The position numbers and the translations under genes were made by a program. A stretch of DNA of 37,836 nucleotides from Nitrospirota bacterium (GTDB lineage: Bacteria; Nitrospirota; Thermodesulfovibrionia; Thermodesulfovibrionales; Dissulfurispiraceae). Of the stretch, positions 4,994-36,821 are shown piece after piece. Positions within the stretch are counted from its first letter, which is position 1. Every line of letters begins with the position of its first letter. The stretch covers positions 1-37,836 of the forward strand of contig JBBIIV010000002.1 in the NCBI GenBank assembly GCA_037446295.1, in the 5' to 3' direction. A model generated the notes under the pieces. That model saw only the letters and a program-made list of their open reading frames with translations. It was not told the origin of the DNA and did not search any database.

Positions 4994-6142
4994 TCACTTT
5001 CCAAAGGGGCAGATAGGATACTTGCAATCATTACAGTTAAGACATAATCCACCATGTCCATACTCAGCCAGTTCTTTTCTGCCAATAATCTCTCCCGCAA
5101 GTATCCTAGGAAGAATGATGTCAAATATAGTTGTCTTATGATACATCCCGCAAGCTGGAATGCCTAAAATAGGGATAAGTGAGCTATCTGGAGTCTTATA
5201 GCAATTTTCAGTTTTATACATATTTGCTGTTCCATTTACAGTATAAGCTACTAAAAACATAGCTCCAGGCAAAACAGGAGAACCATATGTAACCTCTCTG
5301 CCAGTTATTCTTTTGATAGCAAACCTGCTTACATCATCAGGATCAACAGACATGCCACCTGTAACAATCAGTAGGTCAGCCCCTGCGCTAAGAAGATCCA
5401 AAAGTCTTTTTTCGATATAATCTGTGTTATCAGGGGCATAAAACAGATCTATTATTTCTCCTTTAAATTTACTCAGTTTGTCTTTAATAACCTCTGCGAA
5501 TGAATCTTTAACTCTACCATAAAATACCTCATTTCCAGTAATCACAACACCTGCTTTAAACTTTTTAAGTTCTCTTACCTCTATCACACCTCTGCCGTTG
5601 CAAAGGTGATTCACCGTTTTCCGAGCTTTCTTTAACAAATCCTTTTTTATAACGAGCGGTATGGCTCTGGCACCAGCTATAATCTGACTTTTTTTAACCA
5701 GTGTGTGATTATGTAAGGTTGCGCACATAATCTCACCTAATAAATTAAACTCCAAAAGGGCTTCAGTATTTATCTTCAAAATGCCATCTCTTGCTGCAAC
5801 AAAATTTATCTTACCTTCCTTAGGATTACCTTGAACTGCTACGCCATCCCCTTTAATTATATTACCAATTTCTATAGCAGCGTCGTCTTCATGCATTTCA
5901 TCATCTGAAATACTTAAAACAAAAAGGTTCTCTTTGCCAAGTCTCCTTAAATGGCTAATATCAGATTCGGTTATTATATGTCCTTTCCTGAAGGCGACCC
6001 CTTTAAACTCGTCTTTTTTTATCTCGGTAAGATCATGCGCCAAAATACATCCTACTGCCTGAGAAATAGAAATTGTCTTAAGCCTTCTATTATCAGTTGG
6101 AGCTGGATTTGTTGAATGCTCACACATTAAAAATCCTTTCAA
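4994..6142 (-). CDS. molybdopterin-binding (MoeA/MoCF-biosynthesis-like) protein with C-terminal Cys cluster
   Basis: MoaB/MogA/MoeA-type motif LLIVTGGMSVDPDD. MoeA-like N-terminal region (ISISQAVGCILAHDL). C-terminal CLNCNDCKYPICPFGK. An alternative start MCEHS lies at 6127. Only 6 nt separate it from the downstream gene. Confidence 0.6.
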   Translation of the reverse strand: MKGFLMCEHSTNPAPTDNRRLKTISISQAVGCILAHDLTEIKKDEFKGVAFRKGHIITESDISHLRRLGKENLFVLSISDDEMHEDDAAIEIGNIIKGDGVAVQGNPKEGKINFVAARDGILKINTEALLEFNLLGEIMCATLHNHTLVKKSQIIAGARAIPLVIKKDLLKKARKTVNHLCNGRGVIEVRELKKFKAGVVITGNEVFYGRVKDSFAEVIKDKLSKFKGEIIDLFYAPDNTDYIEKRLLDLLSAGADLLIVTGGMSVDPDDVSRFAIKRITGREVTYGSPVLPGAMFLVAYTVNGTANMYKTENCYKTPDSSLIPILGIPACGMYHKTTIFDIILPRILAGEIIGRKELAEYGHGGLCLNCNDCKYPICPFGK

Positions 6143-7489: not shown

Positions 7490-10400
7490 ATGACGAAAAA
7501 AATAATTGTAGTATCACTTTTATCTATAATACTTCTATCCGCCTTTTTCTTCCTGCGTAGTTCTTATATATCGGATACCCTCAAGAGCCTTATATTGCCG
7601 GAGATAGAGAAAACCATAAATAAAAAGGTGACCATTGACAAGATATATATCAATTTTTTCCCTCTTTTTCTCGGCGTAAATGATTTAAAGATATATGAAA
7701 ATGTTGATGATAAAGAGATTCTCCACGCTAAAAGGATAAAAGGATATATAGGTTTCTTTGAGCTTTTCGGCAAAAGAATCGCTATAAAGAGGCTGTCTAT
7801 AAAGGAGCCTGTTATTGACTTGGAGAAGAAGAAGCTCGAAGAAATCATCGCCTCCTTTGATGAACAAAAGACCGAAGAAAAAGATAAACCTGTGGTTGTA
7901 ACAATTAAATCTGTACAGATAGACAACGGAAGCATCTCTCTCAGGGATGATAACCGTTTATTATCCCTTTATGGTATGAATACAGATATTTTGGTTTCTG
8001 GCACGCCGGAAGTCAGGGTTTCCGTTGAAAAGGCGCATTTTTCAAAAGATAAGGACTTAAATCTCGACGGAAGGGTTGCATTACGTTTTATTTATAAAAA
8101 CAATAACATAGACTTGAAATCCTTAAAGGTTACTGTAACTAATTCTGAGTTGAACGCAACAGGGACTTTCGATGTCGGCAAGTCATCCGGCGAATTGAAA
8201 ACCGAGGTTAACCTGCTTATCGATTCCTTAAAGAATGCATTCGGGCTCATCAATAAAGGAGACGGTTTTTTATCTGCCAAAGGTAATATCAAAGCGGTCG
8301 ACCTAAAAGCAGGATTCAAGGATATCTTTCTTGATCTAAAGGTAAAGGGAGATCTTTATCTCGAAACATTGATGGAATTGTTGAGGGTGAAGGAACCGCT
8401 CTATGGCAGAATAAGTTTCAACGGTGATGTAAAAGGACAACTGAAAGACATTCATGGCAGCGCAGACGCAGAACTCAAGAATGGAAGCCTATTCAGGGTT
8501 GACATTGACAAGCTGAACTGCAAGGTTGAATATGCGGGAGGCAAGATGAAATTCACAAAAGGGATTGCCTCTCTTTATGATGGAAGCGCAATGGCTGAAG
8601 CAGTTATAAACCTGCCGGTGGTTAATCATTTCACATTTAAGGTCACAGCTAAAGATGTTTCCAGCAAGAGGATTTTTGAGTTGATAAAATGGGATCCTGG
8701 GTTGCCAGACGGCAAAATCAATGGCGATATATTATCTTCGGGCGGCGTATTCAACCCATATGTGAATTTTATTTACATAAACAAGACTGAAGGCAAGGAT
8801 GTCATTGGAAAGATAAGAGAGATTAAGGGTAATTTAAACATGAAGGACAACTTCATTAGCTTCCCGGATATGACGCTCTCAACACCTAAATCAGACCTCC
8901 GTACAACGGGTTCGGTAGATTTGAAGAATAATAAAATAAGTTTTACAGGAAGCGGCAGGACTTCCGACCTAAAGGAGCTTACAAGTCCATATTTTTCGGC
9001 AGTTTCCGGTTCATGCAGGTTTAATATTTCGCTCTCTGGAAAATTAAGCAATCCTGTTATCGACTTGAACCTTGCATCGGATGCTATGACATTTACAACT
9101 GCAAATCTTGCGATGCCGGATATCTTTAATAACAAGGTCTTTGACTTTAATTCCATAAAATCCACTTTAACTTACGATAAAAATCATCTCTTGCTAAAAG
9201 AGTTCCGCGCACGGAGAAATAATGAGAAATTCACAGCAAAGGGAAACATCTATTTCAAAAAAGCGGCAAAGCTGTTTGAGGTGAGAGAGCCCGATTATAA
9301 TCTAAATATAACCACAGATAACGCCGATATCGAAAATATAACTGGAACAGTCAAAGGACTCCCCAAACTCAAGGGCGCATTGAGCGCCGAATTCGGGATG
9401 AAAGGCGCTGCAGATTCTCTGAGATTTTCCGGCGAATTTAATTCAAAGGGATTTGCTTATATGGATAATTATGTTGCAGACGCATTGCGCGGAAAATTTT
9501 CTTATGCAACAAGGGAATTTCTTATCAGCACCGCAACTATGAAGAAAGGTGATTCCGTTTTGAATCTGAACGGCAGGTTATCATTAGATAAAAGGTTCAC
9601 CCTCAATGCAGAAGGAAAAAAAATAATGATAAGCGATATCCTTTCAGAATCTTTATCAGGAAAATATAAGACGGATACCATAAAGGAACTCTATTTGGAT
9701 AATCTGACAATCAAGGGTGAAGGGCATTTTAATAATCCTAATCTTGAGATGAAAGGCAGCATTTCAGGAAAAAAGAATAGGGTAGGGTGGCTCAGCAAAG
9801 GAAATATTAATGCAAGAATCTCCGGGAAACAAGCGGACATTGATTTATCCTTAATGGACGGAAGGCTGAAGATAACCGGGAAGGCGGGGCTTGGCGAGAA
9901 ACTGCCATGGTCTGCAACTGCTGATATAAAACCGGCGAATTACGCCCCACTCGTTTCAGGTTTTTTAAAGGATGCCCCTGATGACCTACTTATAAACCTG
10001 ACAGGCAAGATAACAGCCAATGGTGATAAGGATAATATAAACGCTGATATCTCTCTGAGCAGGGCGTATGTCTTTTTATACGGGATAGGCCTTGCAAACA
10101 GTTCTGATATACTCGTGAATGTCAAAAACAAAAGTATCGCCATAGGAAGTTTCTCGATGCAAGGGGATGATGCGGAATTCAGCATAAGCGGTAGTGTGGT
10201 CACTGGGAATAAATATGATTTGCTCCTTGAAGGGACTTCATCTGTGGCTCCTCTGAAGGTTCTTTCCAAGGAAATCGAGACCTTGAAAGGCAAGGCTTAC
10301 TTTGTCATATCCTTGTCCGGTGGATGGGAAAAACCGGAAATAAACGGCGGGATAGATTTTACAAACGGGACATTTGCGCTTAAAAGCATTCCCAACAGGT

Positions 10401-11485
10401 TCTCTTCCATTTCAGCCTATCTTTATGTGGATGAAGACAGGATAATTATAAAAAATATAGATGGGAAATTTGCAGGGGGTGATTTTTCCGCATCCGGAAC
10501 TGCTTTCCTTCAAGGCATGAATTTAAAGAACTTTTTCTTAGAGGCTAAACTTAACGATTTAACCATGTCGCGGACGAAGGATCTCTGGGCAAATTTTGAC
10601 GGCATCCTGCATTACCGAGGTTCTTTGAAATCACAGGACTTAACCGGCGATATAAATATAAAAAGGGCGAAGTACTCGCAAAGGATTGAATGGAAAAGCT
10701 GGCTCCTTCAGATTCGCAAGAGAGAAACGGCTAAACTTGATGCATCAAGATTGGGTCAGACCGCTCTTAATGTGAGGGTAAAGGGAGAAAACCTTATAAT
10801 CGACAACAATATAGCCGAGACTACGGCGAAAATGGACATGATCGTTCGAGGGACGATAAACAGGCCGGTTTTACTCGGAAAATTGAATGCAGACAAGGGG
10901 ACTGTATATTTCAGAAATAACGAATTCAAGGTTTTGAAAGCGCGGGTGGATTTTATAGATCCCGAAAAGACGACCCCATACTTTGATATTGTTGCAGAAA
11001 CAAAGGTCAAAAACTATCTTATCAAACTCGGTCTTGACGGCAATTTTGAGCATTTTGACCTCTCCCTCACCTCCGATCCCTATCTGAATGAAAGCGATAC
11101 ATTCAGCCTTCTGACCGTCGGACAGATTGGCAAGCAGATGAAAGGGCTCGAAGGCGGCGTCGGCACAAGCGAGGCCACATCTTTTCTCGCAGGAAAGCTT
11201 CAGGATGTGCTTGAAGAAAGGGTCAAGACCATTACAGGAATAGACAGAATCCAGATTGACCCTCATGTGTCAAAATCAGCGGGCACCGTCACTCCAAGGA
11301 TTACCGTTTCTAAGAAGATTCTTGGGGATAAACTGCATGTAACCTATAGCGCTTCAACAGGTGAGGGTGAAGAGCAGATATGGAAACTTGAATACTTTTT
11401 CGATAAAAATATATCCTTTGTCGGGGTCAGAGATGAAAAGGGAGGGCTTGGAGGAGATGTCAAATTCAGATTTGAATTCAAATAA
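7490..11485 (+). CDS. tamB: translocation and assembly module protein TamB (AsmA-like, C-terminal DUF490-type domain)
   Basis: 1331 aa. Single N-terminal TM anchor (IIVVSLLSIILLSAFFF). Long repetitive beta-rich body. The C-terminal region (RITVSKKILGDKLHVTYSASTG...WKLEYFFDKNISFVGVRDEKGGLGGDVKFRFEF) is typical of the TamB C-terminus. It sits immediately upstream of an Omp85 gene. Confidence 0.8.
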   Translation: MTKKIIVVSLLSIILLSAFFFLRSSYISDTLKSLILPEIEKTINKKVTIDKIYINFFPLFLGVNDLKIYENVDDKEILHAKRIKGYIGFFELFGKRIAIKRLSIKEPVIDLEKKKLEEIIASFDEQKTEEKDKPVVVTIKSVQIDNGSISLRDDNRLLSLYGMNTDILVSGTPEVRVSVEKAHFSKDKDLNLDGRVALRFIYKNNNIDLKSLKVTVTNSELNATGTFDVGKSSGELKTEVNLLIDSLKNAFGLINKGDGFLSAKGNIKAVDLKAGFKDIFLDLKVKGDLYLETLMELLRVKEPLYGRISFNGDVKGQLKDIHGSADAELKNGSLFRVDIDKLNCKVEYAGGKMKFTKGIASLYDGSAMAEAVINLPVVNHFTFKVTAKDVSSKRIFELIKWDPGLPDGKINGDILSSGGVFNPYVNFIYINKTEGKDVIGKIREIKGNLNMKDNFISFPDMTLSTPKSDLRTTGSVDLKNNKISFTGSGRTSDLKELTSPYFSAVSGSCRFNISLSGKLSNPVIDLNLASDAMTFTTANLAMPDIFNNKVFDFNSIKSTLTYDKNHLLLKEFRARRNNEKFTAKGNIYFKKAAKLFEVREPDYNLNITTDNADIENITGTVKGLPKLKGALSAEFGMKGAADSLRFSGEFNSKGFAYMDNYVADALRGKFSYATREFLISTATMKKGDSVLNLNGRLSLDKRFTLNAEGKKIMISDILSESLSGKYKTDTIKELYLDNLTIKGEGHFNNPNLEMKGSISGKKNRVGWLSKGNINARISGKQADIDLSLMDGRLKITGKAGLGEKLPWSATADIKPANYAPLVSGFLKDAPDDLLINLTGKITANGDKDNINADISLSRAYVFLYGIGLANSSDILVNVKNKSIAIGSFSMQGDDAEFSISGSVVTGNKYDLLLEGTSSVAPLKVLSKEIETLKGKAYFVISLSGGWEKPEINGGIDFTNGTFALKSIPNRFSSISAYLYVDEDRIIIKNIDGKFAGGDFSASGTAFLQGMNLKNFFLEAKLNDLTMSRTKDLWANFDGILHYRGSLKSQDLTGDINIKRAKYSQRIEWKSWLLQIRKRETAKLDASRLGQTALNVRVKGENLIIDNNIAETTAKMDMIVRGTINRPVLLGKLNADKGTVYFRNNEFKVLKARVDFIDPEKTTPYFDIVAETKVKNYLIKLGLDGNFEHFDLSLTSDPYLNESDTFSLLTVGQIGKQMKGLEGGVGTSEATSFLAGKLQDVLEERVKTITGIDRIQIDPHVSKSAGTVTPRITVSKKILGDKLHVTYSASTGEGEEQIWKLEYFFDKNISFVGVRDEKGGLGGDVKFRFEFK

Positions 11486-14195
11486 AAAACTCCTGAAAGC
11501 CTTTTGCCATAAAAAAGCTTTTTATTTTTCAATACTGCTTATGTTTTTTCTTTTCTTATTTATGCTTACCTGCAAGTCTGAATCCAGTGCTGTCTCACCC
11601 GACAAATCGCCTGTAGCTAAAATTGAACTAGAAGGGCTTTATTCAATTAAAAAAGAAGAACTCCTAAACCTTCTGGATATCCGCAAAGGGGCTATTCTTG
11701 AAAAAGAGGCTTTGCGAATCGGCATAAAGAGGGCTTTTCTGAAAGGAATTTTTGAAGATATCGTGATAGAGGGTAATGAGGAACTTACAAGTATTCTTGT
11801 TAGGGTTGAAGAAAAAAAGGTGATAGACTGGATTGAGATATCGGGAAATGACTATTTTTCAAAGAGATTTATATTGAGAAATCTGAAGGTAAGTAAAGGC
11901 GAAAGGCTTAATCTCCTGAAGATAAAAGAAGGTGTTACCGCGGTAAGGGAGCAGATGAAAAAGAGGGGTTTCGCCGATTCCAGGATTGAATATTCGATCG
12001 TTTCATTAAAAAACAATAGATGCGGCTTAAGGCTTCAGGTCGATGAGGGCGAACCACAGATAATAAAGAAAATAATAATTTCTGAACTCGATGATACCGT
12101 TAAATCATATTTGAATATGTCGGAAGGAGATATATTCGATATGATAAAGCTGGAAAGACTTGAAAGCAAGGTCTTGAATTACTATAAAAAACATAGATAT
12201 GTAGATACATCATTAAAGTATACATTTAAGGACGGAATTCTTTTCTTTACGCTCAGGAGCGGTCACAAACTTGATATTAATTTTATAGGCAATGATTCAG
12301 TTAAAACAAAAAAATTAATGGAAGAAGCCGTTTTTTATGATATAAACGAATTCAGCAACGACCTTGTAGATGAAATGAAATCAAGGCTGATATCCCTTTA
12401 TCACAAGGAAGGGTTTCCCTTCGCCGAGGTTACCCCGATAGTATCCTCAGGAGATGAATCCGTTGTTCTGGATGTTTATATCTTTGAAGGCATTAGGTAT
12501 AAGGTCAAGGATGTAATGTTTACCGGAGCATCAATTCCGGAAGATAAGCTTAAAGATATTCTTGTATCAAGGAAGGGCGAATATTATAATATTGATATAA
12601 TTGAATCCGATGTGGAAACTCTTACCGAGTTCTATCATTCTCTAGGATATCTTGATGCTGTAGTATCTCAACCTGATATTAAGCTTGCAGATGAAACTGC
12701 TGATATCGAGTTTTTCATATACGAAGGTGCGCAAACAACTATTGCAAAAATCTCCTTTAAAAACAATAAGTCTTTTTCAAATGAAGAGCTTCTTAGTAAG
12801 CTCTCCATTAAACTCGGCAACCCATATAATGAGATAGATGTCGCCGATTCGAGAAGAAATATCCTTAATCTATACAACAGGTCAGGCTTTATTAAAACAA
12901 GGGTTTCGGCTGAAAGCTCCTTTGAAAATAACAACGCAGAGATTGTCTTTTATATTGAGGAGGGTGATATAACCTTCTTCGGTAAGAATGTTATCGTAGG
13001 CAATGAGAGGACAAAATCAAAGGTCATCGAAAGGGAATTGCAGGAAAAGGAAGGTCAGCCCTTTAATTACACTCTGGCGCTGAAAGAGAAGCAGCAAATA
13101 CAGAGGCTTGGTTTATTCACAGACGTAGATTTGAAGCTTTCCGAATATGTAATAGACAACAAGAGGGACGTTGTCTTTCATCTGGACGAAGCGAATCATG
13201 GCGCTGTGGAATTCGGCTTGGGATACGGAGAATATGAGAAATACAGGTTATTTATGGATCTGAGCTATAGAAATCTTTGGGGTATGAACAGGATTGGTTC
13301 ATTCAGGGCTGAGTTAAGCAGTCTCGAACAAAGGCTTATACTAACTTATACCGAACCATGGTTTTTGGACCGTAAGATTGCGCTCAAGTCTTTGATGTTA
13401 TATGAAAACAGAAAGGAAAAAAGCTTAGACACCAAGGAAGTGCTCTATAAATTAAGGCGCAATACCGCTTCTGTCGGTCTGGAAAAAACCTTGAATGAAA
13501 ATATTAAGGCTGACATTTATTATGATTTCTCGGTCGTCAAGACATCCGATGTCAAACCCGATATCATCCTAGGCAGGGAGGATGTAGGAACATTGATAAT
13601 AAGCGGGTTTAGGCCGGGGTTGATATATGATACGAGGGATAATCCATTTGAACCCGGCAAGGGTATTCTTGCAGGCTTGTCCTTCAAGATTGCTTCGGCC
13701 TTGTTCTTTTCCGAGACCGATTTTGCAAAACTCATCTTTTATGGGAACAAATATATAAGATTATCCGAAAGAATCGTTCTCGCATTGTCTTTGAGGGGCG
13801 GTCTATCACAGGGATTCGGGAGCACGACCGAACTTCCTATCGTAGAGAGGTTTTTCCTCGGCGGAAGAACAACTGTGAGAGGGTATGCACAAGATACACT
13901 TGGGCCTAAAGGAGCGGATGGCAACCCTACCGGCGGGAACGCCTTCGCCATGGGTAATATGGAGATGAGGGTTTATTCCGGTAAGGGAATCGGGGTTGTC
14001 GGATTCTTAGACGCCGGAAATGTATGGCAGAAAATCAATCAGGCGGATATTTCCGGCTTTAAATATACGACTGGAATCGGACTAAGATATCAAACCCCTG
14101 CCGGCCCGTTAAGAGTAGATTACGGCTATAAGCTAAACAGGGACATTGGAGAAAGCAAGGGTGAGCTGCATTTCAGCATAGGCCATGCATTTTAA
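11457..14195 (+). CDS. bamA: Omp85-family outer membrane protein assembly factor, BamA-like (about five POTRA repeats plus a 16-strand-type barrel)
   Basis: Repeated POTRA-like units (I.I.GN......I......G......L..D...L...Y...G). Barrel motifs (RNLWGMNR, VERFFLGGRTTVRGY, GGNAFAMGNMEMR, terminal HFSIGHAF). Start placed at ATG 11457 (MSNSD, GGAGGAG just upstream). ATG 11433 is an alternative. It overlaps the tamB stop. Confidence 0.85.
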   Translation: MSNSDLNSNKKLLKAFCHKKAFYFSILLMFFLFLFMLTCKSESSAVSPDKSPVAKIELEGLYSIKKEELLNLLDIRKGAILEKEALRIGIKRAFLKGIFEDIVIEGNEELTSILVRVEEKKVIDWIEISGNDYFSKRFILRNLKVSKGERLNLLKIKEGVTAVREQMKKRGFADSRIEYSIVSLKNNRCGLRLQVDEGEPQIIKKIIISELDDTVKSYLNMSEGDIFDMIKLERLESKVLNYYKKHRYVDTSLKYTFKDGILFFTLRSGHKLDINFIGNDSVKTKKLMEEAVFYDINEFSNDLVDEMKSRLISLYHKEGFPFAEVTPIVSSGDESVVLDVYIFEGIRYKVKDVMFTGASIPEDKLKDILVSRKGEYYNIDIIESDVETLTEFYHSLGYLDAVVSQPDIKLADETADIEFFIYEGAQTTIAKISFKNNKSFSNEELLSKLSIKLGNPYNEIDVADSRRNILNLYNRSGFIKTRVSAESSFENNNAEIVFYIEEGDITFFGKNVIVGNERTKSKVIERELQEKEGQPFNYTLALKEKQQIQRLGLFTDVDLKLSEYVIDNKRDVVFHLDEANHGAVEFGLGYGEYEKYRLFMDLSYRNLWGMNRIGSFRAELSSLEQRLILTYTEPWFLDRKIALKSLMLYENRKEKSLDTKEVLYKLRRNTASVGLEKTLNENIKADIYYDFSVVKTSDVKPDIILGREDVGTLIISGFRPGLIYDTRDNPFEPGKGILAGLSFKIASALFFSETDFAKLIFYGNKYIRLSERIVLALSLRGGLSQGFGSTTELPIVERFFLGGRTTVRGYAQDTLGPKGADGNPTGGNAFAMGNMEMRVYSGKGIGVVGFLDAGNVWQKINQADISGFKYTTGIGLRYQTPAGPLRVDYGYKLNRDIGESKGELHFSIGHAF

Positions 14196-15445: not shown

Positions 15446-16888
15446 ATGAAGAATTTTCTTCTGAGTTTGTCCATCAACACAAAACTCATAGCAATGATGC
15501 TCTTTATGAGCTTCATTTTAATATCCATCCTTTTGTTTTTTTACCAACGCTCTGAGCAAAAAATATTTAATGAAATAGAAAGGCAGACCGCCGAGCTTAC
15601 CAAAGCGATTCAGGTAGGCGTTGAGGAAGTGACCGCTTACGGCGCTACCGATGAAGCCCGACTGACCAATTATCTGAAAGAGTTAAATGCAAGGGGAATT
15701 CAGGAAATCTCCATTATAAGCAATGAAGACCAGATAATAGCGAGCACAAATACCGCAAGGATAGGCGAACCGATAACGCGCAAGAAAAAAGACTTAATAA
15801 TCAAGGCTGAACTCGGCGATCCTGTCTCTGACGAAGGCAAGACTTATAATGTCATTTTCCCTGTTGTTGTTGGAGGGACAGAGTATGCATATATTCATTA
15901 CGGCTATATACATCTGAAGATTAATAAAGATGACTTTTCTGATTTGCTTGAGACTTCAGCTATTGAAAAGATTGTGGTTACCCTGATGGTTTTTGGAATT
16001 GGCATTATTATGACAATATTTTTCTCAAGGCAATATACCCGTCCTATTCATGATGTGGTTAACGCAGCGATGAATGTGGCAGGTGGAGATTTGAATCAGA
16101 ACTTGCCTATAAGAAGCTCTGATGAGATTGGCAAGCTTTCAACCAGCTTTAATTATATGGTCAATAAATTAAGGGAAAGCAAGATGCTTGAAGAAAAGTT
16201 AAGGGAGGTTGAGCATCTCTCGGCTGTAGGACAGCTATCAAGAAGCATGGCTCATGAGATAAGAAATCCTCTTAATTTTATCAATCTTAGCATTGATTAT
16301 ATCGGAGACAAATATCTCCCAGACGACCCAAAAAATAAAGAGAAATTTAGCAGTCTCGTCAGAGGAATAAAGGAAGAAATTCAGAGGCTCAATAAACTTG
16401 TCAATGAATTTCTTGACTACAGCAAGCCTATTAAGTTAGATATCAGTAAAGTTCAAATCGGCAAGGCTATTAATGACCTTCTTTTGCTTGTTCAAGCAAA
16501 GGCTGAAGCCGAAAAGATTAAGATTATCAAAGAGACTACTGATGATTATGAAATTGGCATAGATCAGGAGCTTATTAAATCGTGTATATTGAATCTTATA
16601 ACAAACGCATTTCACGCAATGGAAAACATTGAACGAGAACATTTTTTAAAAATAAAAACTGCAGTGGATGGTTCGAATTTAATCTTAACCGTTTCAGATA
16701 ACGGCACGGGTGTCTCGCCCGAAAATCTTTCGAAGATATTTGACCCTTTCTTCTCAACAAAGAAAAATGGACTTGGACTCGGTTTGCCATTTACCAAGAG
16801 AGTGGTTGAGGAGCATGGCGGCAGGGTAGAATTTCAAAGCAAATTAAATGAAGGTAGTGAAGCCAGAATAATACTACCACTGGGTTAA
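15446..16888 (+). CDS. sensor histidine kinase (2 TM, periplasmic domain, HAMP, HisKA, HATPase_c)
   Basis: Canonical HAMP (RPIHDVVNAAMNVAGGDLNQNLPIRSSDEIGKLSTSFNYMVNKL). H-box RSMAHEIRNPLN. N box LNLITNAFHA. G boxes DNGTGV and GLGLGL. Confidence 0.85.
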   Translation: MKNFLLSLSINTKLIAMMLFMSFILISILLFFYQRSEQKIFNEIERQTAELTKAIQVGVEEVTAYGATDEARLTNYLKELNARGIQEISIISNEDQIIASTNTARIGEPITRKKKDLIIKAELGDPVSDEGKTYNVIFPVVVGGTEYAYIHYGYIHLKINKDDFSDLLETSAIEKIVVTLMVFGIGIIMTIFFSRQYTRPIHDVVNAAMNVAGGDLNQNLPIRSSDEIGKLSTSFNYMVNKLRESKMLEEKLREVEHLSAVGQLSRSMAHEIRNPLNFINLSIDYIGDKYLPDDPKNKEKFSSLVRGIKEEIQRLNKLVNEFLDYSKPIKLDISKVQIGKAINDLLLLVQAKAEAEKIKIIKETTDDYEIGIDQELIKSCILNLITNAFHAMENIEREHFLKIKTAVDGSNLILTVSDNGTGVSPENLSKIFDPFFSTKKNGLGLGLPFTKRVVEEHGGRVEFQSKLNEGSEARIILPLG

Positions 16889-16941
16889 TTAAATAAATTT
16901 TTGATAATTTATACGTTGTTCTTAATTCGAAAGGAGCTTTT

Positions 16942-18336
16942 ATGGCAGTTGTCGTTGTAATTGATGATGAGCTTCCTCAGCTTTCTATTATTAAAACAAT
17001 CTTGGAAGAAAACGGCTACGAAGTTTATGCAGCATCCTCAGGAGAAGAAGGTCTAAAATTAATCAAGACAATCAATCCTGATGTTGTTCTCTCAGACCTT
17101 AAAATGAGCGGCATGAGCGGCGATCAACTTCTTGACGCTTTGAATGAAGAGGCTGTTAAACCTGCGTTTGTTTTGATGACGGCATTTGGAACTATTTCAT
17201 CTGCTGTTGAGGCAATGAAAAAAGGCGCATTTCATTACCTTACCAAACCTATTGATAAGGATGTGATTTTGCATACGGTGAGAAAAGCAGCTGAGATGAT
17301 ATATCTAGGTAGAGAAAATATTAGACTTCAGGATGCACTTTTCGATAAATTTAAGATAGAGGGAATAGTCGGCGGCTCTAAAAAGATGAAAGACGCTGTC
17401 GATGTAGTAAAAAAGGTAACACCTACAACAGTAACAGTGTTGATTTATGGAGAGAGCGGAACGGGCAAGGAGCTTATTGCGAGGGCAATTCATTATAACA
17501 GCCCGAGGCGAACGGGTCCTTTTACCGTCATTAATTGCGCCGCAATTCCTGAAAATCTCATTGAAAGCGAGCTTTTTGGATATGAGCCTGGCGCTTTTAC
17601 AGGCGCTTCTCACCGCAAGATAGGTCTTTTTGAAGCTTCCGACAAAGGAACACTTTTCCTTGACGAGGTAGGCGACCTTCCTCTGCTGACACAGACAAAG
17701 ATATTGAGGGTTTTGCAAGATAAGGAGATAAGAAGACTTGGCGGGAAAAATAATATCAAGGTCGATGTCAGAATCATTGCGGCAACTAATAAAATGCTCG
17801 AAAAGGAGGTCTCAGCCGGAAGATTTAGAGAGGATCTTTTTTATAGGCTTAAGGTTGTAACAGTTGACCTCCCACCCCTTAGAGACAGAAAGGAAGATAT
17901 TCCTACCCTCGCAGATTTTTTTATAAAAAAATACAACAATGAGTTCGGCAAAAGAGTCAAGGGGATAAGTGATGGGTCAAAGAAGGCGCTGGTTGAGTAT
18001 TTATGGCCAGGGAATATTCGCCAGCTTGAATCGGTAATAGAGAGGGCTGTCCTCATGTGCGACAAGGACATGATTAATATAAACGACATCAAGAGTGAAC
18101 TCAAGCTTCCGGACCAAGCTGGCATACTAGAGATTGAAATACCCGACGAAGGGATAGACTTTGAAGAGCTTGAGAGGGAATTAATAAGAAAAGCTATGGT
18201 CAAAACAAATAATGTTGCTGCAAAAGCAGCTCAACTATTAGGCATGAGCTATAAAACATTCTGGTACAGACTCGAGAAATTTGGGCTAAAATCAGTTTCC
18301 TCAAAAGGGGATATATATCCCGAAAAGAGAAACTAA
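16942..18336 (+). CDS. sigma-54-dependent response regulator (REC + AAA+ + HTH)
   Basis: Receiver (VVVIDDE, DVVLSDLKMSGMSG). Walker A GESGTGKE. Canonical GAFTGA loop (GYEPGAFTGA). C-terminal HTH (NNVAAKAAQLLGMSYKTFWYRLEK). Confidence 0.9.
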   Translation: MAVVVVIDDELPQLSIIKTILEENGYEVYAASSGEEGLKLIKTINPDVVLSDLKMSGMSGDQLLDALNEEAVKPAFVLMTAFGTISSAVEAMKKGAFHYLTKPIDKDVILHTVRKAAEMIYLGRENIRLQDALFDKFKIEGIVGGSKKMKDAVDVVKKVTPTTVTVLIYGESGTGKELIARAIHYNSPRRTGPFTVINCAAIPENLIESELFGYEPGAFTGASHRKIGLFEASDKGTLFLDEVGDLPLLTQTKILRVLQDKEIRRLGGKNNIKVDVRIIAATNKMLEKEVSAGRFREDLFYRLKVVTVDLPPLRDRKEDIPTLADFFIKKYNNEFGKRVKGISDGSKKALVEYLWPGNIRQLESVIERAVLMCDKDMININDIKSELKLPDQAGILEIEIPDEGIDFEELERELIRKAMVKTNNVAAKAAQLLGMSYKTFWYRLEKFGLKSVSSKGDIYPEKRN

Positions 18337-18980: not shown

Positions 18981-19009
18981 AGGCGTTCAGAAATGGACGC
19001 CTTTTTTTA
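18981..19009. terminator. intrinsic terminator between convergent genes
   Basis: Stem AGGCGT (18981-18986) pairs with ACGCCT (18997-19002), followed by a T-run (19002-19008). It lies 19 nt after the stop of the small ORF. Its T-tract overlaps the stop codon (19007-19009) of the convergent regulator gene. Confidence 0.55.
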
Positions 19010-20371
19010 TTCCTGCATATTTATCCCATATAATTTAATCTTTTTATGGAGATTGCTTCTCTCTACAGCTATAGCTTCAGAAGTTTTGGAGATATTCCAG
19101 TTGTTTTCTGCAAGTTTTCTTATTATAAAATCCTTCTCTAATGCATCTCTTGCATCCTTAAGGGTGTTAAATGAAAAATAGCTATATTTATTTTGAATTT
19201 CTTTAAATTGTAGCAAACCCAGATTTTCTATATCAGACACCTCTACTATCTGTGAGGGCACCATTATCATAATTCGTTCAACTGCGTTTTTGAGCTCTCT
19301 GATGTTGCCACGCCACTCGTATTTTTTAAACATACTGATGACATCCTTGCTTATCTCCTTTGGCTTTATCGCGCTGTCGGAGCTGAACTGTGATACAAAA
19401 TGACTTACTAACTCAGGTATATCCTCAAGCCTTTCCCTCAAAGAAGGAGACGCGATAGATATAACATTAAGCCTGAAATACAGGTCTTCCCTGAAAGCGC
19501 CTCTTTGAACCTCGTTTAACAAATCCTTATTGGTCGCTGCAATGATTCGGGTATCAACCTTTATATTTTTGCTGCCCCCGACCCTTTGAAAGGTCTGGGC
19601 TTCTATCACCCTCAATACTTTAGATTGGGTCATTAAAGACATATCTCCAATCTCATCAAGAAATAGTGTGCCCGTATCAGCGAGTTCAAATTTACCTATC
19701 TTTTTTTCAAATGCGCCCGTAAAAGAACCTTTTTCATGTCCAAATAATTCGCTCTCAATTAAATCCTGAGGGATTGCTGCACAATTAACTTCTATAAAAG
19801 GATTATCGCATCTCGGGCTTTTTTGATGTAAAAGCCTCGCTATTATCTCTTTACCAGTCCCGCTCTCGCCCGTAATGAGTACCCTGCTACTGCTTAGGGC
19901 AGCCATCTCAATCTGTTGATTTAGGTGAGCAATTTTGTCTGAATTGCCAACAAGCCTCCAGTTTTTATTAAGAGCGGCTCTCAGGGTGCGGTTTTCAGAG
20001 ATCAGCCTTTTTAATTCTAATGCCTTTTTCGTTCTAGAAAAAAGCTCTTTTTCTTCAAGAGGTTTTTCAAGAAAATCATGGGCACCAAGCTTCATAGCCT
20101 TTACAGCAGTTTCTATGTCTCCATGCGCCGATATCATAATTATTGGAACATCAAGGGACTTCTTTATTAAAATAAGCGTTTGTATTCCGTCCATCCCTGG
20201 AAGCCATATATCAAGAAAGATGGCATCCGGGGCAAATTCCCTGAGAAGCTCAATAGCCTCTTCCCCTGAACCTGCTGTTATGACTTCATATCCCTCATCC
20301 TTAAATGTGTCGGAGAGACTTTCTCTTACACCTCTGTCATCATCCACAATCATAAGCAATTCTGTTGGCAT
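19007..20371 (-). CDS. sigma-54-dependent response regulator (NtrX/NtrC-like)
   Basis: Receiver (LLMIVDDD, DAIFLDIWLPGMDG). Walker A GESGTGKE. GSFTGA loop (GHEKGSFTGA). C-terminal HTH (WNISKTSEAIAVERSNLHKKIK). It lies 18 nt downstream of the NtrY-like kinase gene. Confidence 0.9.
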   Translation of the reverse strand: MPTELLMIVDDDRGVRESLSDTFKDEGYEVITAGSGEEAIELLREFAPDAIFLDIWLPGMDGIQTLILIKKSLDVPIIMISAHGDIETAVKAMKLGAHDFLEKPLEEKELFSRTKKALELKRLISENRTLRAALNKNWRLVGNSDKIAHLNQQIEMAALSSSRVLITGESGTGKEIIARLLHQKSPRCDNPFIEVNCAAIPQDLIESELFGHEKGSFTGAFEKKIGKFELADTGTLFLDEIGDMSLMTQSKVLRVIEAQTFQRVGGSKNIKVDTRIIAATNKDLLNEVQRGAFREDLYFRLNVISIASPSLRERLEDIPELVSHFVSQFSSDSAIKPKEISKDVISMFKKYEWRGNIRELKNAVERIMIMVPSQIVEVSDIENLGLLQFKEIQNKYSYFSFNTLKDARDALEKDFIIRKLAENNWNISKTSEAIAVERSNLHKKIKLYGINMQE

Positions 20372-20389
20372 TGCAACTCCTTATGTCCT

Positions 20390-22426
20390 TTATTCTGCGG
20401 GCAACCTTAAAACAAAAACTGCGCCGTGTGGAATATTGTCTCTTATGGAGACTTGCCCTCCATGATCTGTTATCACCTTAGCGGCAATGGCGAGTCCAAG
20501 ACCAGTGCCTCCTTCTCTCTTTGAAAAGTAGGGCTGAAAAAGCCTTTCCTTTTCGTCTGCAGGGATGCCGGAACCTGTATCAGCAATCTCAATAATTAAA
20601 AAATTATCATTATCCTTTTTGACTCTTATATCTATGACGCCTTTACAGTTCATTGCTTCAATGGCGTTGTCTATAATATTGATTAATGCCCTCTTGATCT
20701 GTTCTCTGTCAAGTTGGACAAAAGAAATATCCTGACTGACGGACAGCTGTATCTCAATATCCTTAAACCCACTATAAAGTATAGCAAAATCATTAAGCAA
20801 TTTCCTTATATCCACAGACTTTTTTTTGATTTCCGGCATCCTGCCATATTTGGAAAATATATCCACGAGTCTTCGGAGGCTGTCCACCTCATATATAATT
20901 GCATTTGTTGATTTTTCAAAAACCGAGTCAAAATCATTGCTTTTCTGTTTCCACTTCTTTATGAGTCTTTCTGCAGATAGTCTGATTGGTGTAAGAGGGT
21001 TTTTAATCTCATGAGCCACCTTACGGGCAAATTCCTGCCACGCCATCGCCTTTTGCGCCGCTATTATGTTTGTCAAGTCATTGAAAACAACGAGCAGACC
21101 AAGAGATTTAAAAGATTGAGGGTCCCATATACCTGAGATATAAACCATCAGGATTGCCGTCTTGTCTCCGAGTTCAAGTTTGATCTCCTTTTTTATATCT
21201 CTTATCTTTTGCCCTTGGAGGGTCTGCACGAGATTATTCAAATCTGTGGAATTGATGCTGACGATAAAATCTCTATAATTTTTGCCCGCAAAATCCTCCT
21301 GTTTTATATTCAATATCAAGCAAGCCGCCTTATTAATTGTTAAAATAGTCATATTATTATCGAGAAAAATAACCCCTGAATTGATATTATCGAGAATGTT
21401 CTCGAGAAATAATCTTCTCTTATCAGACTCTGCATAAGCAGTTTCAAGGGATTCTTTATTGTCCTTAAGTTCTTTCACCATCTGATTGAATGAGTTGATC
21501 AAGATGCCTATCTCATCATCAGTCTTAGCGTCAATGGCAACATTCAGATTACCTGAAGCCACCTCTCTTGTTGCCAAAGCAAGATTTTGGATTGGGTCGG
21601 TAATCCCTTGCGATATCTTCAGAGAAACCCACAAACCAGCAAAAACCATAAGAATGGTCATAAAACTGAGTATCAGTATATAATTAAGGCTCAAAGGCGA
21701 CTTGAAAGATTCAAAATCTAAAAAATCTTCATGATAAGCCCTTAATTTTTCAGACTTGACAGAGATTAACTCAGGCAGTCTTAGCTCAACGACTATTACT
21801 GCAGATTTATTATCGCTTCCAACAAGGGGAACGGCAGCCCTGATGATGTCGCCGCTAAAAGAGGAGATTATCTCAGCGGCTTCCCTGCCCTCAAAAGCCT
21901 CTCTGATTATTTCTCCTTCATCATCAGCCAGGTTAGTGAGCCTCTTGACGGTTAATCCTTCTGTTAAAATCTCATTACCTTTTGAAATCTGTTTTGCGAT
22001 ACTTAATGCCCTGTTTTTTTCCAAATCATAAAATGCCCTTGCAAGTTCTACTGAATTGGTAAGACTTTCCTTAACGGGGAGGGAGAAAAACCTGTTTATG
22101 TAGTTGGTGAAGAGTCCTGCCGAAACAACAAAAAGAGATACTGAAGGTATCAGTATCAAAATCATGAACACAGCAACAAGACGGCTTCTGAAGCGATAGC
22201 CCGGCACCTTGTCCCTTCTCTGAACATAAAGCTTAAACAAGTTTTTTACTACAAAAAAGATAAGGGTTAGCAGTGCAATAATGTTGAGGGTTAGAATGCT
22301 CGTAAGTATGAATCTGGCTGTTATGTCGGTATAGGGAAATCTGAAGTAGTAGATTTGAGCTAAAGTTATCGTTATTACGAGAATAATTGCCAGAAAAAGA
22401 AGTTTGATTTGATTCAATCTTTTCAT
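20390..22426 (-). CDS. NtrY-like sensor histidine kinase (multi-TM N-terminus, HAMP, PAS, HisKA, HATPase_c)
   Basis: Several N-terminal TM helices. HAMP (ITDPIQNLALATREVASGNLNVAIDAKTDDEIGILINSFNQMVKEL). PAS-like segment (LENILDNINSGVIFLD). H-box KVAHEIKNPLTPI. G boxes DTGSGI and GTGLGL. Length and architecture match NtrY. Confidence 0.8.
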   Translation of the reverse strand: MKRLNQIKLLFLAIILVITITLAQIYYFRFPYTDITARFILTSILTLNIIALLTLIFFVVKNLFKLYVQRRDKVPGYRFRSRLVAVFMILILIPSVSLFVVSAGLFTNYINRFFSLPVKESLTNSVELARAFYDLEKNRALSIAKQISKGNEILTEGLTVKRLTNLADDEGEIIREAFEGREAAEIISSFSGDIIRAAVPLVGSDNKSAVIVVELRLPELISVKSEKLRAYHEDFLDFESFKSPLSLNYILILSFMTILMVFAGLWVSLKISQGITDPIQNLALATREVASGNLNVAIDAKTDDEIGILINSFNQMVKELKDNKESLETAYAESDKRRLFLENILDNINSGVIFLDNNMTILTINKAACLILNIKQEDFAGKNYRDFIVSINSTDLNNLVQTLQGQKIRDIKKEIKLELGDKTAILMVYISGIWDPQSFKSLGLLVVFNDLTNIIAAQKAMAWQEFARKVAHEIKNPLTPIRLSAERLIKKWKQKSNDFDSVFEKSTNAIIYEVDSLRRLVDIFSKYGRMPEIKKKSVDIRKLLNDFAILYSGFKDIEIQLSVSQDISFVQLDREQIKRALINIIDNAIEAMNCKGVIDIRVKKDNDNFLIIEIADTGSGIPADEKERLFQPYFSKREGGTGLGLAIAAKVITDHGGQVSIRDNIPHGAVFVLRLPAE

Positions 22427-32396: not shown

Positions 32397-33146
32397 ATGC
32401 TGCTTGGCGTGAATGTTGATCATATTGCTACAGTGAGAGAGGCTCGAAAAACCTTTGAACCAGATCCTGTAATAGGGGCTACTTTTGCAATCTTAGGCGG
32501 GGCTGATGGAATAACAGTTCACTTAAGGGAAGACAGGCGGCATATAAATGATAGGGACTTAAGGCTTTTGCGCCAAGTAGTGGCTTGCGAGCTTAACCTC
32601 GAAATGGCTGCTACAGAGGAAATGATTCAGATAGCATTCGAGGTAAAACCAGACCTTGTCACTATCGTTCCAGAAAATCGGCATGAATTGACCACGGAAG
32701 GCGGTCTGGATGTTGCGGGGCAGCGAGAGCATCTCACGGAGGCTATAGGAAGGCTTAAGAGAGCTGGCATACGTGTAAGTCTGTTTATTAATCCATATGT
32801 TTCAGATGTGGAGCTTTCGGCAGAGATCGGAGCTGATATGGTTGAGATCCATACAGGATTGTATGCTAATGCCAAAGGCAAAAAACAGCAGGAAGAACTA
32901 CACAATGTTATTGAGGCAGCAAAAACAGGTAACGGGGTTGGATTATTGGTCAATGCAGGACATGGACTGACATACCATAATGTCAACAATATTGCCTCCG
33001 TAAGCAATATCAGAGGGCTTTATATTGGACACAGCATCATATCGAGAGCGGTATTAATCGGGATTAAGAGCGCAGTGATGCAGATGAAGGATCTAATAAA
33101 TCTGCATAGTATCGTGAGGCATTGTAATGAAATGCAAAAACTGTGA
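32397..33146 (+). CDS. pdxJ: pyridoxine 5'-phosphate synthase
   Basis: LLGVNVDHIATVREAR, ITVHLREDRRHI, LNLEMA, IVPE, VSLFI, VEIHTG and NAGHGL are hallmark PdxJ motifs. Confidence 0.92.
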   Translation: MLLGVNVDHIATVREARKTFEPDPVIGATFAILGGADGITVHLREDRRHINDRDLRLLRQVVACELNLEMAATEEMIQIAFEVKPDLVTIVPENRHELTTEGGLDVAGQREHLTEAIGRLKRAGIRVSLFINPYVSDVELSAEIGADMVEIHTGLYANAKGKKQQEELHNVIEAAKTGNGVGLLVNAGHGLTYHNVNNIASVSNIRGLYIGHSIISRAVLIGIKSAVMQMKDLINLHSIVRHCNEMQKL

Positions 33147-33294
33147 TGGCGAAATAAGGCTTATTATCAATTGAGCATCGGTATATTTATGCTGCAAGGT
33201 TTGCAGCAAGATCTATCAACTTTCAGAATATATTGATGAGATTGATGATGCCATGTGGAGTATGATTAGCCTAAGACCGAGCAATAGGGCATAA
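33127..33294 (+). CDS. candidate small dual-CxxC protein that needs read-through of an in-frame TGA (possible selenocysteine at codon 16); alternatively a pseudogene
   Basis: ATG at 33127 with GTGAGG 7 nt upstream. The translation is MKCKNCDGEIRLIIN, then TGA (33172-33174), then ASVYLCCKVCSKIYQLSEYIDEIDDAMWSMISLRPSNRA, then TAA (33292-33294), all in one frame. It is too short to appear in the supplied ORF track. Confidence 0.35.
33190..33208 (+). promoter_or_regulatory. hairpin with GGU apical loop downstream of the in-frame TGA (candidate bacterial SECIS)
   Basis: TGCTGCAA (33190-33197), GGT loop, TTGCAGCA (33201-33208). This is a perfect 8-bp stem. The loop begins 26 nt after the U of the UGA. 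Confidence 0.3.
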
Positions 33295-33366
33295 CTTTTT
33301 CTTTTTTTATAACCTCTTGTATTCATCATTATTAAGTCGGATCCCAATAAACCCTGGGCTATAAAT

Positions 33367-33606
33367 AGAGTCTGTTCATAAATTGCTGTTTTTTATTTTT
33401 GTCATGCCCGAAGCCTGCCCTCGAAGTTTGTAGTCGGGGGTCCTTAGTCGGGCATCCAGAGATAAGGAATTGGATTCCCACTTTCGCGGGAACCACTGGA
33501 TTCCTGCTCCCTGCTTACTGCCTGCAGGGACAAGCTTCGCAGGAATGACAGCCTTTTATACCAATGAGATTTTATAAACAGACTCTAAATAAAGTCTGTT
33601 TATAAA
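33367..33606. mobile_element. MITE-like non-autonomous element with terminal inverted repeats and internal GTCATTCC-type palindromes
   Basis: AGAGTCTGTTCATAAA (33367-33382) pairs with TTTATAAACAGACTCT (33571-33586), 15 of 16 complementary. A third copy (33593-33606) forms a hairpin with the right end. The GC-rich interior contains nested palindromes (ATGCCCGA/TCGGGCAT, and on the minus strand GTCATTCCTGC...GCAGGAATCC). There is no ORF. Confidence 0.5.
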
Positions 33607-33704
33607 ATCAGCTTTTTCATCATTCTCGCTAGCAAATGGAGACGAAATCCTTCTCTCTAGCTAAGGGAATGATTTTGACGATTCTGTTTTAATTAGGTGA
33701 GTTT

Positions 33705-34193
33705 TTGCGGATAATCATTGATGGTTATAATGTTATTGGCGTCTTGCATAATGACATGGAAAAGATAAGAAACAGCTTTATTGAGCTTTTGATTAAATAT
33801 AAGAACCTCAAGCATCATGATATCACAGTAGTTTTTGATGCCTATAAAAGCGGAGATAAATATGAGCAAACAGCTTTCAGCGGTGGGGTAAAAATTATAT
33901 ATACAAAGCTTGGCGAAACTGCTGACGACATGATTAAAAGAATCATTTCGCATGAACAAAGAGAATGGGTAGTTATCTCCACTGACAGAGATTTAACAAA
34001 ATATACATGGTCTGTAAATTCTGTCCCTGTGCCGTCAAGTTTTTTTTTAGATATCCTTGAGATAGGTATCCAGCCTAAAAGGTTAAACGGTGAAGATGAA
34101 GACGATACCGTTGAGATTAAACCATTGAAAGGAAGCCCATTCAGGCTATCCCGCAAAGACAAGGCGTTAAAAAGGGTTATTGGCAAGTTGTAG
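33705..34193 (+). CDS. NYN-domain (YacP/Rae1-like) predicted RNase
   Basis: TTG start preceded by AGGTGA. IIIDGYNVIG, VVFDA, IYTKLGETADDMIKRI and VVISTDRDL match the YacP-like NYN pattern. Confidence 0.7.
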   Translation: MRIIIDGYNVIGVLHNDMEKIRNSFIELLIKYKNLKHHDITVVFDAYKSGDKYEQTAFSGGVKIIYTKLGETADDMIKRIISHEQREWVVISTDRDLTKYTWSVNSVPVPSSFFLDILEIGIQPKRLNGEDEDDTVEIKPLKGSPFRLSRKDKALKRVIGKL

Positions 34194-36368: not shown

Positions 36369-36821
36369 ATGTTTATTCAGATGAAGGTTGAGGGTCTGTT
36401 ATTTGACCCCAGAAGTGGAATGTATATACTCCTTTTGCATCAGGTTGATGGCAATGCAACATTGCCTATATGGATAGGCAAACCAGAGGCGGATTCGATA
36501 GCGTTGGCGTTAGGCAAGGTAATAACTCCTCGCCCGCTAACCCATGACCTCATCAAAAATATATTTGACAATCTTAATGTTCATGTAAACAAGGTAATAA
36601 TCACTCAGATAATTGATAATACCTATTATGCTGTAATATGCGCTCAGGATTATCGTGGAGATATAAACATTGACTCAAGGCCATCAGATGCTGTTGCAGT
36701 TGCTGTAAGGGTGCAAGTGCCTATTTTCGTTGATGAGAATGTTCTTGATGCGAGAAAGGCAGACGAGCTTGAAGAATGGCTTAAAAATCTCAAGCCGGAG
36801 GACTTTGGTAATGTCATGTAA
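36369..36821 (+). CDS. bifunctional nuclease family protein (DUF151/BFN)
   Basis: LPIWIGKPEADSIALAL......RPLTHDL and RPSDAVAVAVR motifs. It starts 2 nt after era. Confidence 0.75.
   Translation: MFIQMKVEGLLFDPRSGMYILLLHQVDGNATLPIWIGKPEADSIALALGKVITPRPLTHDLIKNIFDNLNVHVNKVIITQIIDNTYYAVICAQDYRGDINIDSRPSDAVAVAVRVQVPIFVDENVLDARKADELEEWLKNLKPEDFGNVM

Follow-up and report, generated by a model that had tools for sequence, protein, structure and literature searches.

A small dual-CXXC gene with a probable selenocysteine codon in a Nitrospirota bacterium

A small gene of a Nitrospirota bacterium, at positions 33127-33294 on the forward strand of a 37,836-nucleotide (nt) stretch of contig JBBIIV010000002.1 (assembly GCA_037446295.1), carries an in-frame TGA at codon 16 that we read, with a probability of about 0.88, as a codon for selenocysteine (Sec), which would make it an intact 55-residue selenoprotein gene. 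The whole stretch is referred to below as the window. This assignment is drawn mainly from comparative evidence: the recurrence of the TGA in orthologs, selection across it, the conservation and covariation of a downstream hairpin, and the contrast with related genes that carry a cysteine (Cys) codon at the same place. What the data show directly is that the product belongs to its family, that Sec and Cys share one column, that purifying selection acts on both sides of the UGA, and that the hairpin is conserved with covarying pairs.

Judged by its sequence, the product is a member of the NCBIfam family NF041197, “dual CXXC motif small (seleno)protein”, also called OS_HP3. The novelty is low: the gene adds one more member to an NCBI-curated family whose prediction dates from 2007, and it comes from a Nitrospirota clade in which the family is nearly always in its Sec form, and selenoprotein specialists will find little here to surprise them.

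The gene and its in-frame TGA

The reading frame opens with ATG at 33127, encodes MKCKNCDGEIRLIIN, reaches the TGA at 33172-33174 and then runs through 39 sense codons (ASVYLCCKVCSKIYQLSEYIDEIDDAMWSMISLRPSNRA) to a TAA at 33292-33294, so that the coding sequence, TAA included, would specify the 55-residue product MKCKNCDGEIRLIIN-U-ASVYLCCKVCSKIYQLSEYIDEIDDAMWSMISLRPSNRA. Direct reading of the forward strand places a Shine-Dalgarno-like GTGAGG at 33114-33119, 7 nt 5' of the ATG, and a direct check for ATG, GTG and TTG found no in-frame start between the TGA and the ATG at 33253. The original prediction had described this frame, the Shine-Dalgarno sequence and the lack of a restart before 33253, and had added an 8-base-pair (bp) stem with a GGU loop at 33190-33208, 26 nt from the UGA, and the use of TGA as an ordinary stop elsewhere in the window; all of these readings were borne out.

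The 31 long open reading frames (ORFs) of the window end in TAA (15), TGA (10) or TAG (6), and their read-through extensions are short or unrelated. TGA being the stop of 10 of these 31 ORFs, the code is not reassigned. A scan of the window found no other TGA-split gene that might serve as an internal sign of Sec use.

Family membership and the Sec/Cys column

With U16 read as C, the product scores 55.9 bits against NF041197 (NF041197.2, an equivalog model with a curated cutoff of 40 bits), the match covering residues 3-54 and profile positions 1-52 of 53; an X in place of U16 still gives 47.5 bits, above the cutoff. All 31 members of the clade alignment match the same model. The original prediction had tentatively pointed to a family of small dual-CXXC (seleno)proteins, and this passage of the cutoff over the whole model identifies it. 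In the Olavius symbiont metagenome, OS_HP3 had been put forward as a selenoprotein whose gene has a SECIS-like (selenocysteine insertion sequence-like) hairpin (Zhang & Gladyshev 2007; PMC1976440), and it is entered under NF041197 in a 2026 review (PMC13188914). The window product shares with the family a length of about 55-56 residues, the layout CxxC-x9-(U/C)-x6-CxxC with Sec or Cys at column 16, an acidic E...D helix after the ribbon and, as reported for OS_HP3, a SECIS-like hairpin after the UGA. Whereas the named, abundant members are Cys forms of the Desulfobulbales type, whose column 16 is embedded in R-x-C-R and whose tail reads ...YTxIIYD, the window clade (Nitrospirota/Thermodesulfovibrionales) has (G/N)-U, the tail EYIDEID...ISxRP(C/S)NR(A/V) and TGA in 20/22 species representatives. 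Pfam holds no model for the 55-residue protein, and a word-indexed protein search with the conceptual 55-mer returned no match.

An exhaustive phmmer search with exactly the 39 residues that follow the TGA returned only four hits, and the key Cys homologs were among them: P0003 (55 residues) and P0004 (70 residues, with a 15-residue N-terminal extension) are full length and have Cys at column 16. The 32-residue hit P0002 is a fragment, a typical mis-call of the stretch 3' of a TGA. In alignment A1, which adds further Cys forms, there are no gaps and C16 is invariant; the in-frame UGA of the window aligns gaplessly with the Cys of the homologs. Five Cys positions (C3, C6, C16, C23 and C26, with U for C16 in the window) do not vary in A3 (n=31) or in A4, an alignment of 51 Cys-form sequences in which D40 is invariant as well. 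A profile search gathered 341 Cys-form proteins, several of which, from Desulfotalea psychrophila, Candidatus Electrothrix and other Thermodesulfobacteriota, carry the NCBI name “dual CXXC motif small (seleno)protein”.

A locus scan that took one genome per species returned 29 loci. Among the 22 of Nitrospirota/Thermodesulfovibrionales type, 20 have TGA at codon 16 (L001, L002, L004-L020 and L022) and the remaining two have TGT (L003) and TGC (L028). The 20 TGA loci keep their frame open across the conserved tail EYIDEID...IS.RP(C/S)(N/D)R(A/V), and these species representatives are divergent, with 45-67% protein identity; the locus nearest to the window gene, L001, is 67% identical. In six loci of Thermodesulfobacteriota type, from Desulfobulbaceae and related groups (L021, L023-L027), the codon is TGC and the tail differs (...IIYD), and a Cys codon (TGT/TGC) also occupies position 16 in L031, L033 and L035. 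Cys forms occur within the same phylum too (L003, P0003-P0007 and P0030). One further candidate, L029 from Clostridia, was rejected as a family member: its column 16 is not Cys and the conserved tail is absent.

The homologs pass the checks proposed in the original prediction: they have Cys or TGA at position 16 and a conserved downstream half, and none ends at codon 15. Degradation of the locus in relatives, which it had named as a sign to the contrary, is seen only in L028, where an insertion splits a Cys form. In the Nitrospirota/Thermodesulfovibrionales the family is almost always of the Sec form, and ordinary gene callers would miss or truncate such a gene. Full-length entries in the searched protein collections are Cys forms only; Nitrospirota Sec forms are either missing from them or represented by fragments (e.g., P0002).

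Selection across the TGA

Selection was measured on 20 full-length TGA forms. The ratio of nonsynonymous to synonymous differences (pN/pS) averages 0.36 beyond the TGA (codons 17-55) and 0.40 ahead of it (codons 2-15), and the entropy after the TGA is 0.75, 0.67 and 1.36 at codon positions 1, 2 and 3, respectively. None of the 20 forms has an in-frame stop after the TGA, while the other two frames carry several. Four orthologs terminate in TGA, hence TGA serves as both a sense codon and a stop inside one gene. Taken together, the pN/pS values, the entropy, the open frame and the terminal TGA codons exclude a pseudogene, a product of 15 residues only and a reassigned code.

The SECIS-like hairpin

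Positions 33190-33197 pair with 33201-33208 on the forward strand in a perfect 8-bp stem closed by a GGU loop at 33198-33200; the UGA and the loop are separated by 23 nt (26 nt if counted from the U). The stem-loop has a calculated energy of -9.7 kcal/mol and the 64-nt fold one of -15 kcal/mol. With this loop, stem, spacing and stem-loop energy, the hairpin falls within all four limits of the bSECIS model, which include an upper stem of 4-16 bp, a UGA-to-loop distance of 16-37 nt and a minimum free energy (MFE) of at most -7.5 kcal/mol (PMC13188914). It also agrees with the bacterial SECIS consensus (the bSECISearch model, as given in PMC13188914) in its 3-nt apical loop beginning with GG, its 8-bp upper stem and its 23-nt spacing. 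It is unlike the SECIS elements of E. coli fdhF and fdnG, and its stem is made of zinc-knuckle codons. The hairpin is formed by codons 22-28, where the second CxxC is encoded; both UGC codons and the Gly/Ser codon that follows are paired within the stem, and the GG of the loop is formed by the last G of codon 24 and the first G of codon 25. This SECIS-like hairpin, built from the codons of the second knuckle, is a clear example of an RNA structure that constrains synonymous sites and the choice of residue at codons 22, 24, 25 and 27.

Conservation of the structure was assessed on A2, a gapless alignment of 21 TGA forms. The named stem is paired in 86.9% of cells, against 23-53% when the partners are slid, and the covariation score of 0.264 compares with a shuffled mean of 0.138 and was reached by none of 500 shuffles. 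The pair of columns 20 and 36 appears as GC14/AU4/CG1/UG1, column 36 being the four-fold degenerate third position of Gly27, and the pair 26-30 as UA7/CG4/UG3/AU1. At column 21, the last base of codon 22, every one of the 21 sequences has C although that codon specifies seven different amino acids among them, and the loop GG (columns 27-28) is at least 90% conserved.

The same region looks different where column 16 is Cys. The 21 TGA forms retain 6.95 of the 8 pairs, with a mean MFE of -8.7 kcal/mol and TGC as the Cys23 codon in 20/21, whereas the 11 Cys forms (L003, L028, L021, L023-L027, L031, L033 and L035) retain 4.64 of 8, with a mean MFE of -2.6 kcal/mol and TGT as the Cys23 codon in 6 of the 10 that are intact; the GG loop is also gone. 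These Cys forms have the identical C-x-x-C-G motif without the hairpin, which indicates that the hairpin has been selected for together with the TGA.

A possible extension of the stem on the forward strand, in which 33180-33183 would pair with 33214-33217 and 33185-33188 with 33209-33212 (33180-33217 overall), appears in the single-sequence MFE fold only. It was rejected as a conserved feature, being weak and not recovered by RNAalifold.

Of the 1569 TGAs that the two strands of the window contain, about 0.3% (4-5) are followed by a comparable hairpin, i.e., one equally stable, gap-free and with bSECIS spacing and loop. Two other TGAs were noted in the window with stable hairpins within bSECIS spacing: one at 12083-12160 (+), followed by an 11-bp stem with the loop GGAAGGA, and one at 36480-36555 (-), followed by an 8-bp stem with the loop AGUUAUUA. 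Both TGAs lie inside uninterrupted long ORFs and are hence out of frame.

Decoding of the UGA and rival explanations

In the mechanism that we propose, a ribosome arriving at the UGA of codon 16 would meet the hairpin 23 nt downstream, whose 8-bp stem and GGU loop would serve as a bacterial SECIS. The hairpin would recruit SelB-GTP-Sec-tRNASec, and Sec would presumably be inserted instead of termination mediated by RF2, after which translation would proceed to the TAA. The selenoprotein with a SECIS-like hairpin put forward in the original prediction is upheld by the Sec/Cys alternation at column 16, by selection past the TGA and by hairpin covariation that is confined to the TGA forms.

Several observations weigh against this reading. 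NF041197/OS_HP3 is presented solely as a computational prediction in PMC1976440 and PMC13188914, and experimental evidence was found for no member of the family. None of selA, selB, selD or tRNA-Sec was found within the 37.8-kb window, where there is no tRNA at all, and tRNA scans of the window and 21 loci gave no tRNA-Sec. Rfam gave no SECIS match over the whole window at the gathering score, nor on 33100-33700 at E <= 10, which means only that none of Rfam's families reached threshold. The single-sequence z-score of the 64-nt fold is a modest -1.94. The original prediction had cautioned that TGC/GCA codons partly dictate the stem; this holds for the four core pairs, which are fixed by Cys/Gly codons (UGC, UGC, GG) and leave the covariation to rest on three outer pairs, but not for the hairpin as a whole, which Cys forms with the same CxxCG motif lack. 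Finally, the review gives the Sec motif of the family as RxU (table in PMC13188914), whereas the window has I-N-U and the clade mostly x-G-U, or (I/V/F)-(G/N)-U around codon 16; R-x-C occurs in family members of the Desulfobulbales type. As far as the alignments show, this mismatch is a difference between subfamilies and not a failure of homology, the column being identical.

The rival that survives best, improbable as we judge it, is that the UGA is recoded not to Sec, or not only to Sec, through near-cognate read-through or through the insertion of Cys by a tRNASec-like selC* tRNA-Cys(UCA). Genes for selC* tRNA-Cys have been reported in Thermodesulfovibrio and in contigs probably from Nitrospirae, a deltaproteobacterial tRNA species with the UCA anticodon is reported to have read a Sec UGA as Cys in E. 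coli, and many homologs tolerate Cys at column 16. Yet all of the genomes that bear selC*, Thermodesulfovibrio among them, are reported to have the complete Sec apparatus (selA/selB/selC/selD), and selC* with a UCA anticodon and a dedicated CysRS* has been described for Desulfobacterales, not Nitrospirota. Moreover, the hairpin fits the SelB/SECIS model, and TGY would be the cheaper codon if Cys were intended, yet TGA is kept in 20/22 lineages. That Cys may sometimes be inserted at this UGA is a minority reading.

It is still less probable that termination at the UGA is normal, with a 15-residue leader peptide as the product, the UGA and hairpin pausing ribosomes to regulate the neighboring genes and the remainder of the frame non-functional. 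UGA-SECIS recoding in E. coli is inefficient, at about 30-40% (PMC4513850), and a gene for a Rae1/YacP-type nuclease, of a family that cleaves mRNA on the upstream side of stalled ribosomes (PMC12407103), lies downstream in 11/21 loci. Against this, the 39 codons after the UGA show the codon-position-specific entropy and the low pN/pS given above, the residues that they encode align gaplessly with Cys-form proteins made as a single chain, and the second knuckle of the confidently modeled zinc ribbon comes from this part. A regulatory role may exist on top of the protein-coding one.

The pseudogene reading, in which a TGY-to-TGA mutation in a Cys-form dual-CxxC gene left a decaying downstream remnant, had been raised as a caveat by the original prediction and is effectively refuted. 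In a single sequence such a one-base change would look identical, and Cys forms do exist in the same phylum; but the same TGA recurs in 20 divergent species representatives without a downstream stop or frameshift, the downstream pN/pS of 0.36 equals that of the upstream part, and the TGA is accompanied by a covarying hairpin. Genome-wide reassignment of TGA to a sense codon such as Gly or Trp, for which nothing specific speaks, is refuted by the TGA stops of 10/31 long window ORFs and by the four orthologs that have TGA at codon 16 and also end in it.

Predicted fold and function

An AlphaFold2 model of the Cys homolog P0006, built on 51 sequences, has a mean pLDDT (predicted local distance difference test) of 79, with strands at residues 9-14, 19-23 and 29-31 and helices at 32-35, 41-48 and 51-54. 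In this model a β-hairpin is bracketed by the two CxxC knuckles, and residue 16 lies in the turn of the hairpin. The selenoprotein product is predicted to form a four-Cys zinc ribbon (C3, C6, C23 and C26) followed by acidic helices. Judging from the strand lengths and topology, and not from coordinates, the turn at residue 16 is probably exposed and distant from the metal site. This placement suggests that Sec16 would act as a single reactive selenol for redox chemistry, metal or metalloid chemistry or the binding of a partner, rather than as a zinc ligand. A C-terminal Cys52 is common in the clade and is Ser in the window, which rules out a U16-C52 redox pair as a general feature.

A Foldseek search of the PDB found nothing significant and only generic zinc ribbons. 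Over the structure and sequence searches, the best of the weak matches were ZifS TTHA0897 (8yoz; Foldseek E 0.077, probability 0.98) and the HypA zinc domain (3a43; E 4.7e-4). Small zinc ribbons of these kinds (ZifS; the Rpb9/RPC10/TFIIS type; the HypA zinc domain) likewise have two CxxC knuckles around a β-hairpin, but none is listed as having a Sec, or a fifth Cys that is conserved, in the turn of that hairpin, and none reaches family-level significance. The similarity to zinc ribbons indicates fold and says nothing on function.

Gene neighborhood and an intergenic repeat element

Upstream, a pdxJ-like gene taken from the ORF list (32397-33146, +) ends in TGA, and its last 20 nt overlap the start of the small gene, which suggests translational coupling. 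Among the loci, pdxJ lies upstream only in the window and in L001, where the overlap is ATGA, and the link is not conserved. Further upstream of pdxJ lie a DUF4390 gene and a type II secretion/pilus-like cluster (PilM/N, GspK and GspM-type).

The most conserved neighbor is a YacP-like NYN-domain gene of the Rae1 family at 33705-34193 (+; PF05991, E 9e-22). A YacP-like NYN gene lies downstream on the same strand in 11/21 Sec loci (the window, L001, L002, L004-L010 and L020), and both outer flanks vary among these 11. In a second context the small gene lies between DUF3786 and radical-SAM genes and a putative multiheme cytochrome gene (faint Pfam hits only), and in Desulfotalea it is found in still another. 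The YacP family includes B. subtilis Rae1, which cleaves mRNA 5' of stalled ribosomes (PMC12407103). The recurrence of this neighbor offers a first functional handle on a family known since 2007, and it is conceivable, if doubtful, that the small selenoprotein and the YacP/Rae1-type NYN endoribonuclease form a functional pair. Speculatively, the zinc-ribbon selenoprotein might be a partner or regulator of a ribosome-associated nuclease; equally speculatively, slow UGA-Sec decoding might be sensed by the nuclease, linking selenium status or pausing to the fate of the mRNA. The evidence favors no particular mechanism for the link.

The small gene and the NYN gene are separated by a 410-nt spacer (33295-33704) with an insert that resembles a miniature inverted-repeat transposable element (MITE) or a repetitive extragenic palindromic (REP) sequence; in orthologous loci the spacer is down to 34-200 nt. 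Its inverted repeats, at 33359-33382 and 33571-33594, surround a GC-richer core with the motifs GGATTCCCACTTTCGCGGGAA and CTTCGCAGGAATGACAG, and a near-perfect 20-nt hairpin with a T-tail at 33568-33609 has a terminator-like score. BLAST found no second copy of the element in the window or the loci, and Rfam gave only a sub-threshold RT-19 hit on it. In L028 (2587-2864), from a Nitrospirota metagenome-assembled genome, an insertion of at least about 150 nt interrupts the Cys-form ortholog behind codon 21 and carries TCATTCCTGCGGAAGCAGGAATCC and GGATTCCCACTTTCGTGGGAATGAC, the type of motif found in the intergenic element of the window; the coding sequence seems to resume (..LNCIDC..) near the end of the contig. 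L028 is probably a copy disrupted by a repeat element.

Other genes of the window

On the minus strand, an ORF at 4994-6142 with a molybdenum-cofactor-synthesis domain and a Cys-rich C-terminus (...CLNCNDCKYPICPFGK) ends in a TGA in frame with 3281-4987, which encodes a PhnD-like substrate-binding protein. This long read-through was rejected as a selenoprotein: its 570 codons open with a stretch resembling a signal peptide and lipobox, and the arrangement therefore looks like two adjacent genes that share a frame. At 7490-14195 (+), a TamB-like ORF (1331 residues) and an Omp85/BamA-like ORF (944 residues as listed, with a GTG start) overlap by 125 nt in different frames, and the true start of the latter is probably further downstream. 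Three pairs of histidine kinases and sigma-54-dependent response regulators (268-3284, 15446-18336 and 19007-22426) lie within 22 kb.

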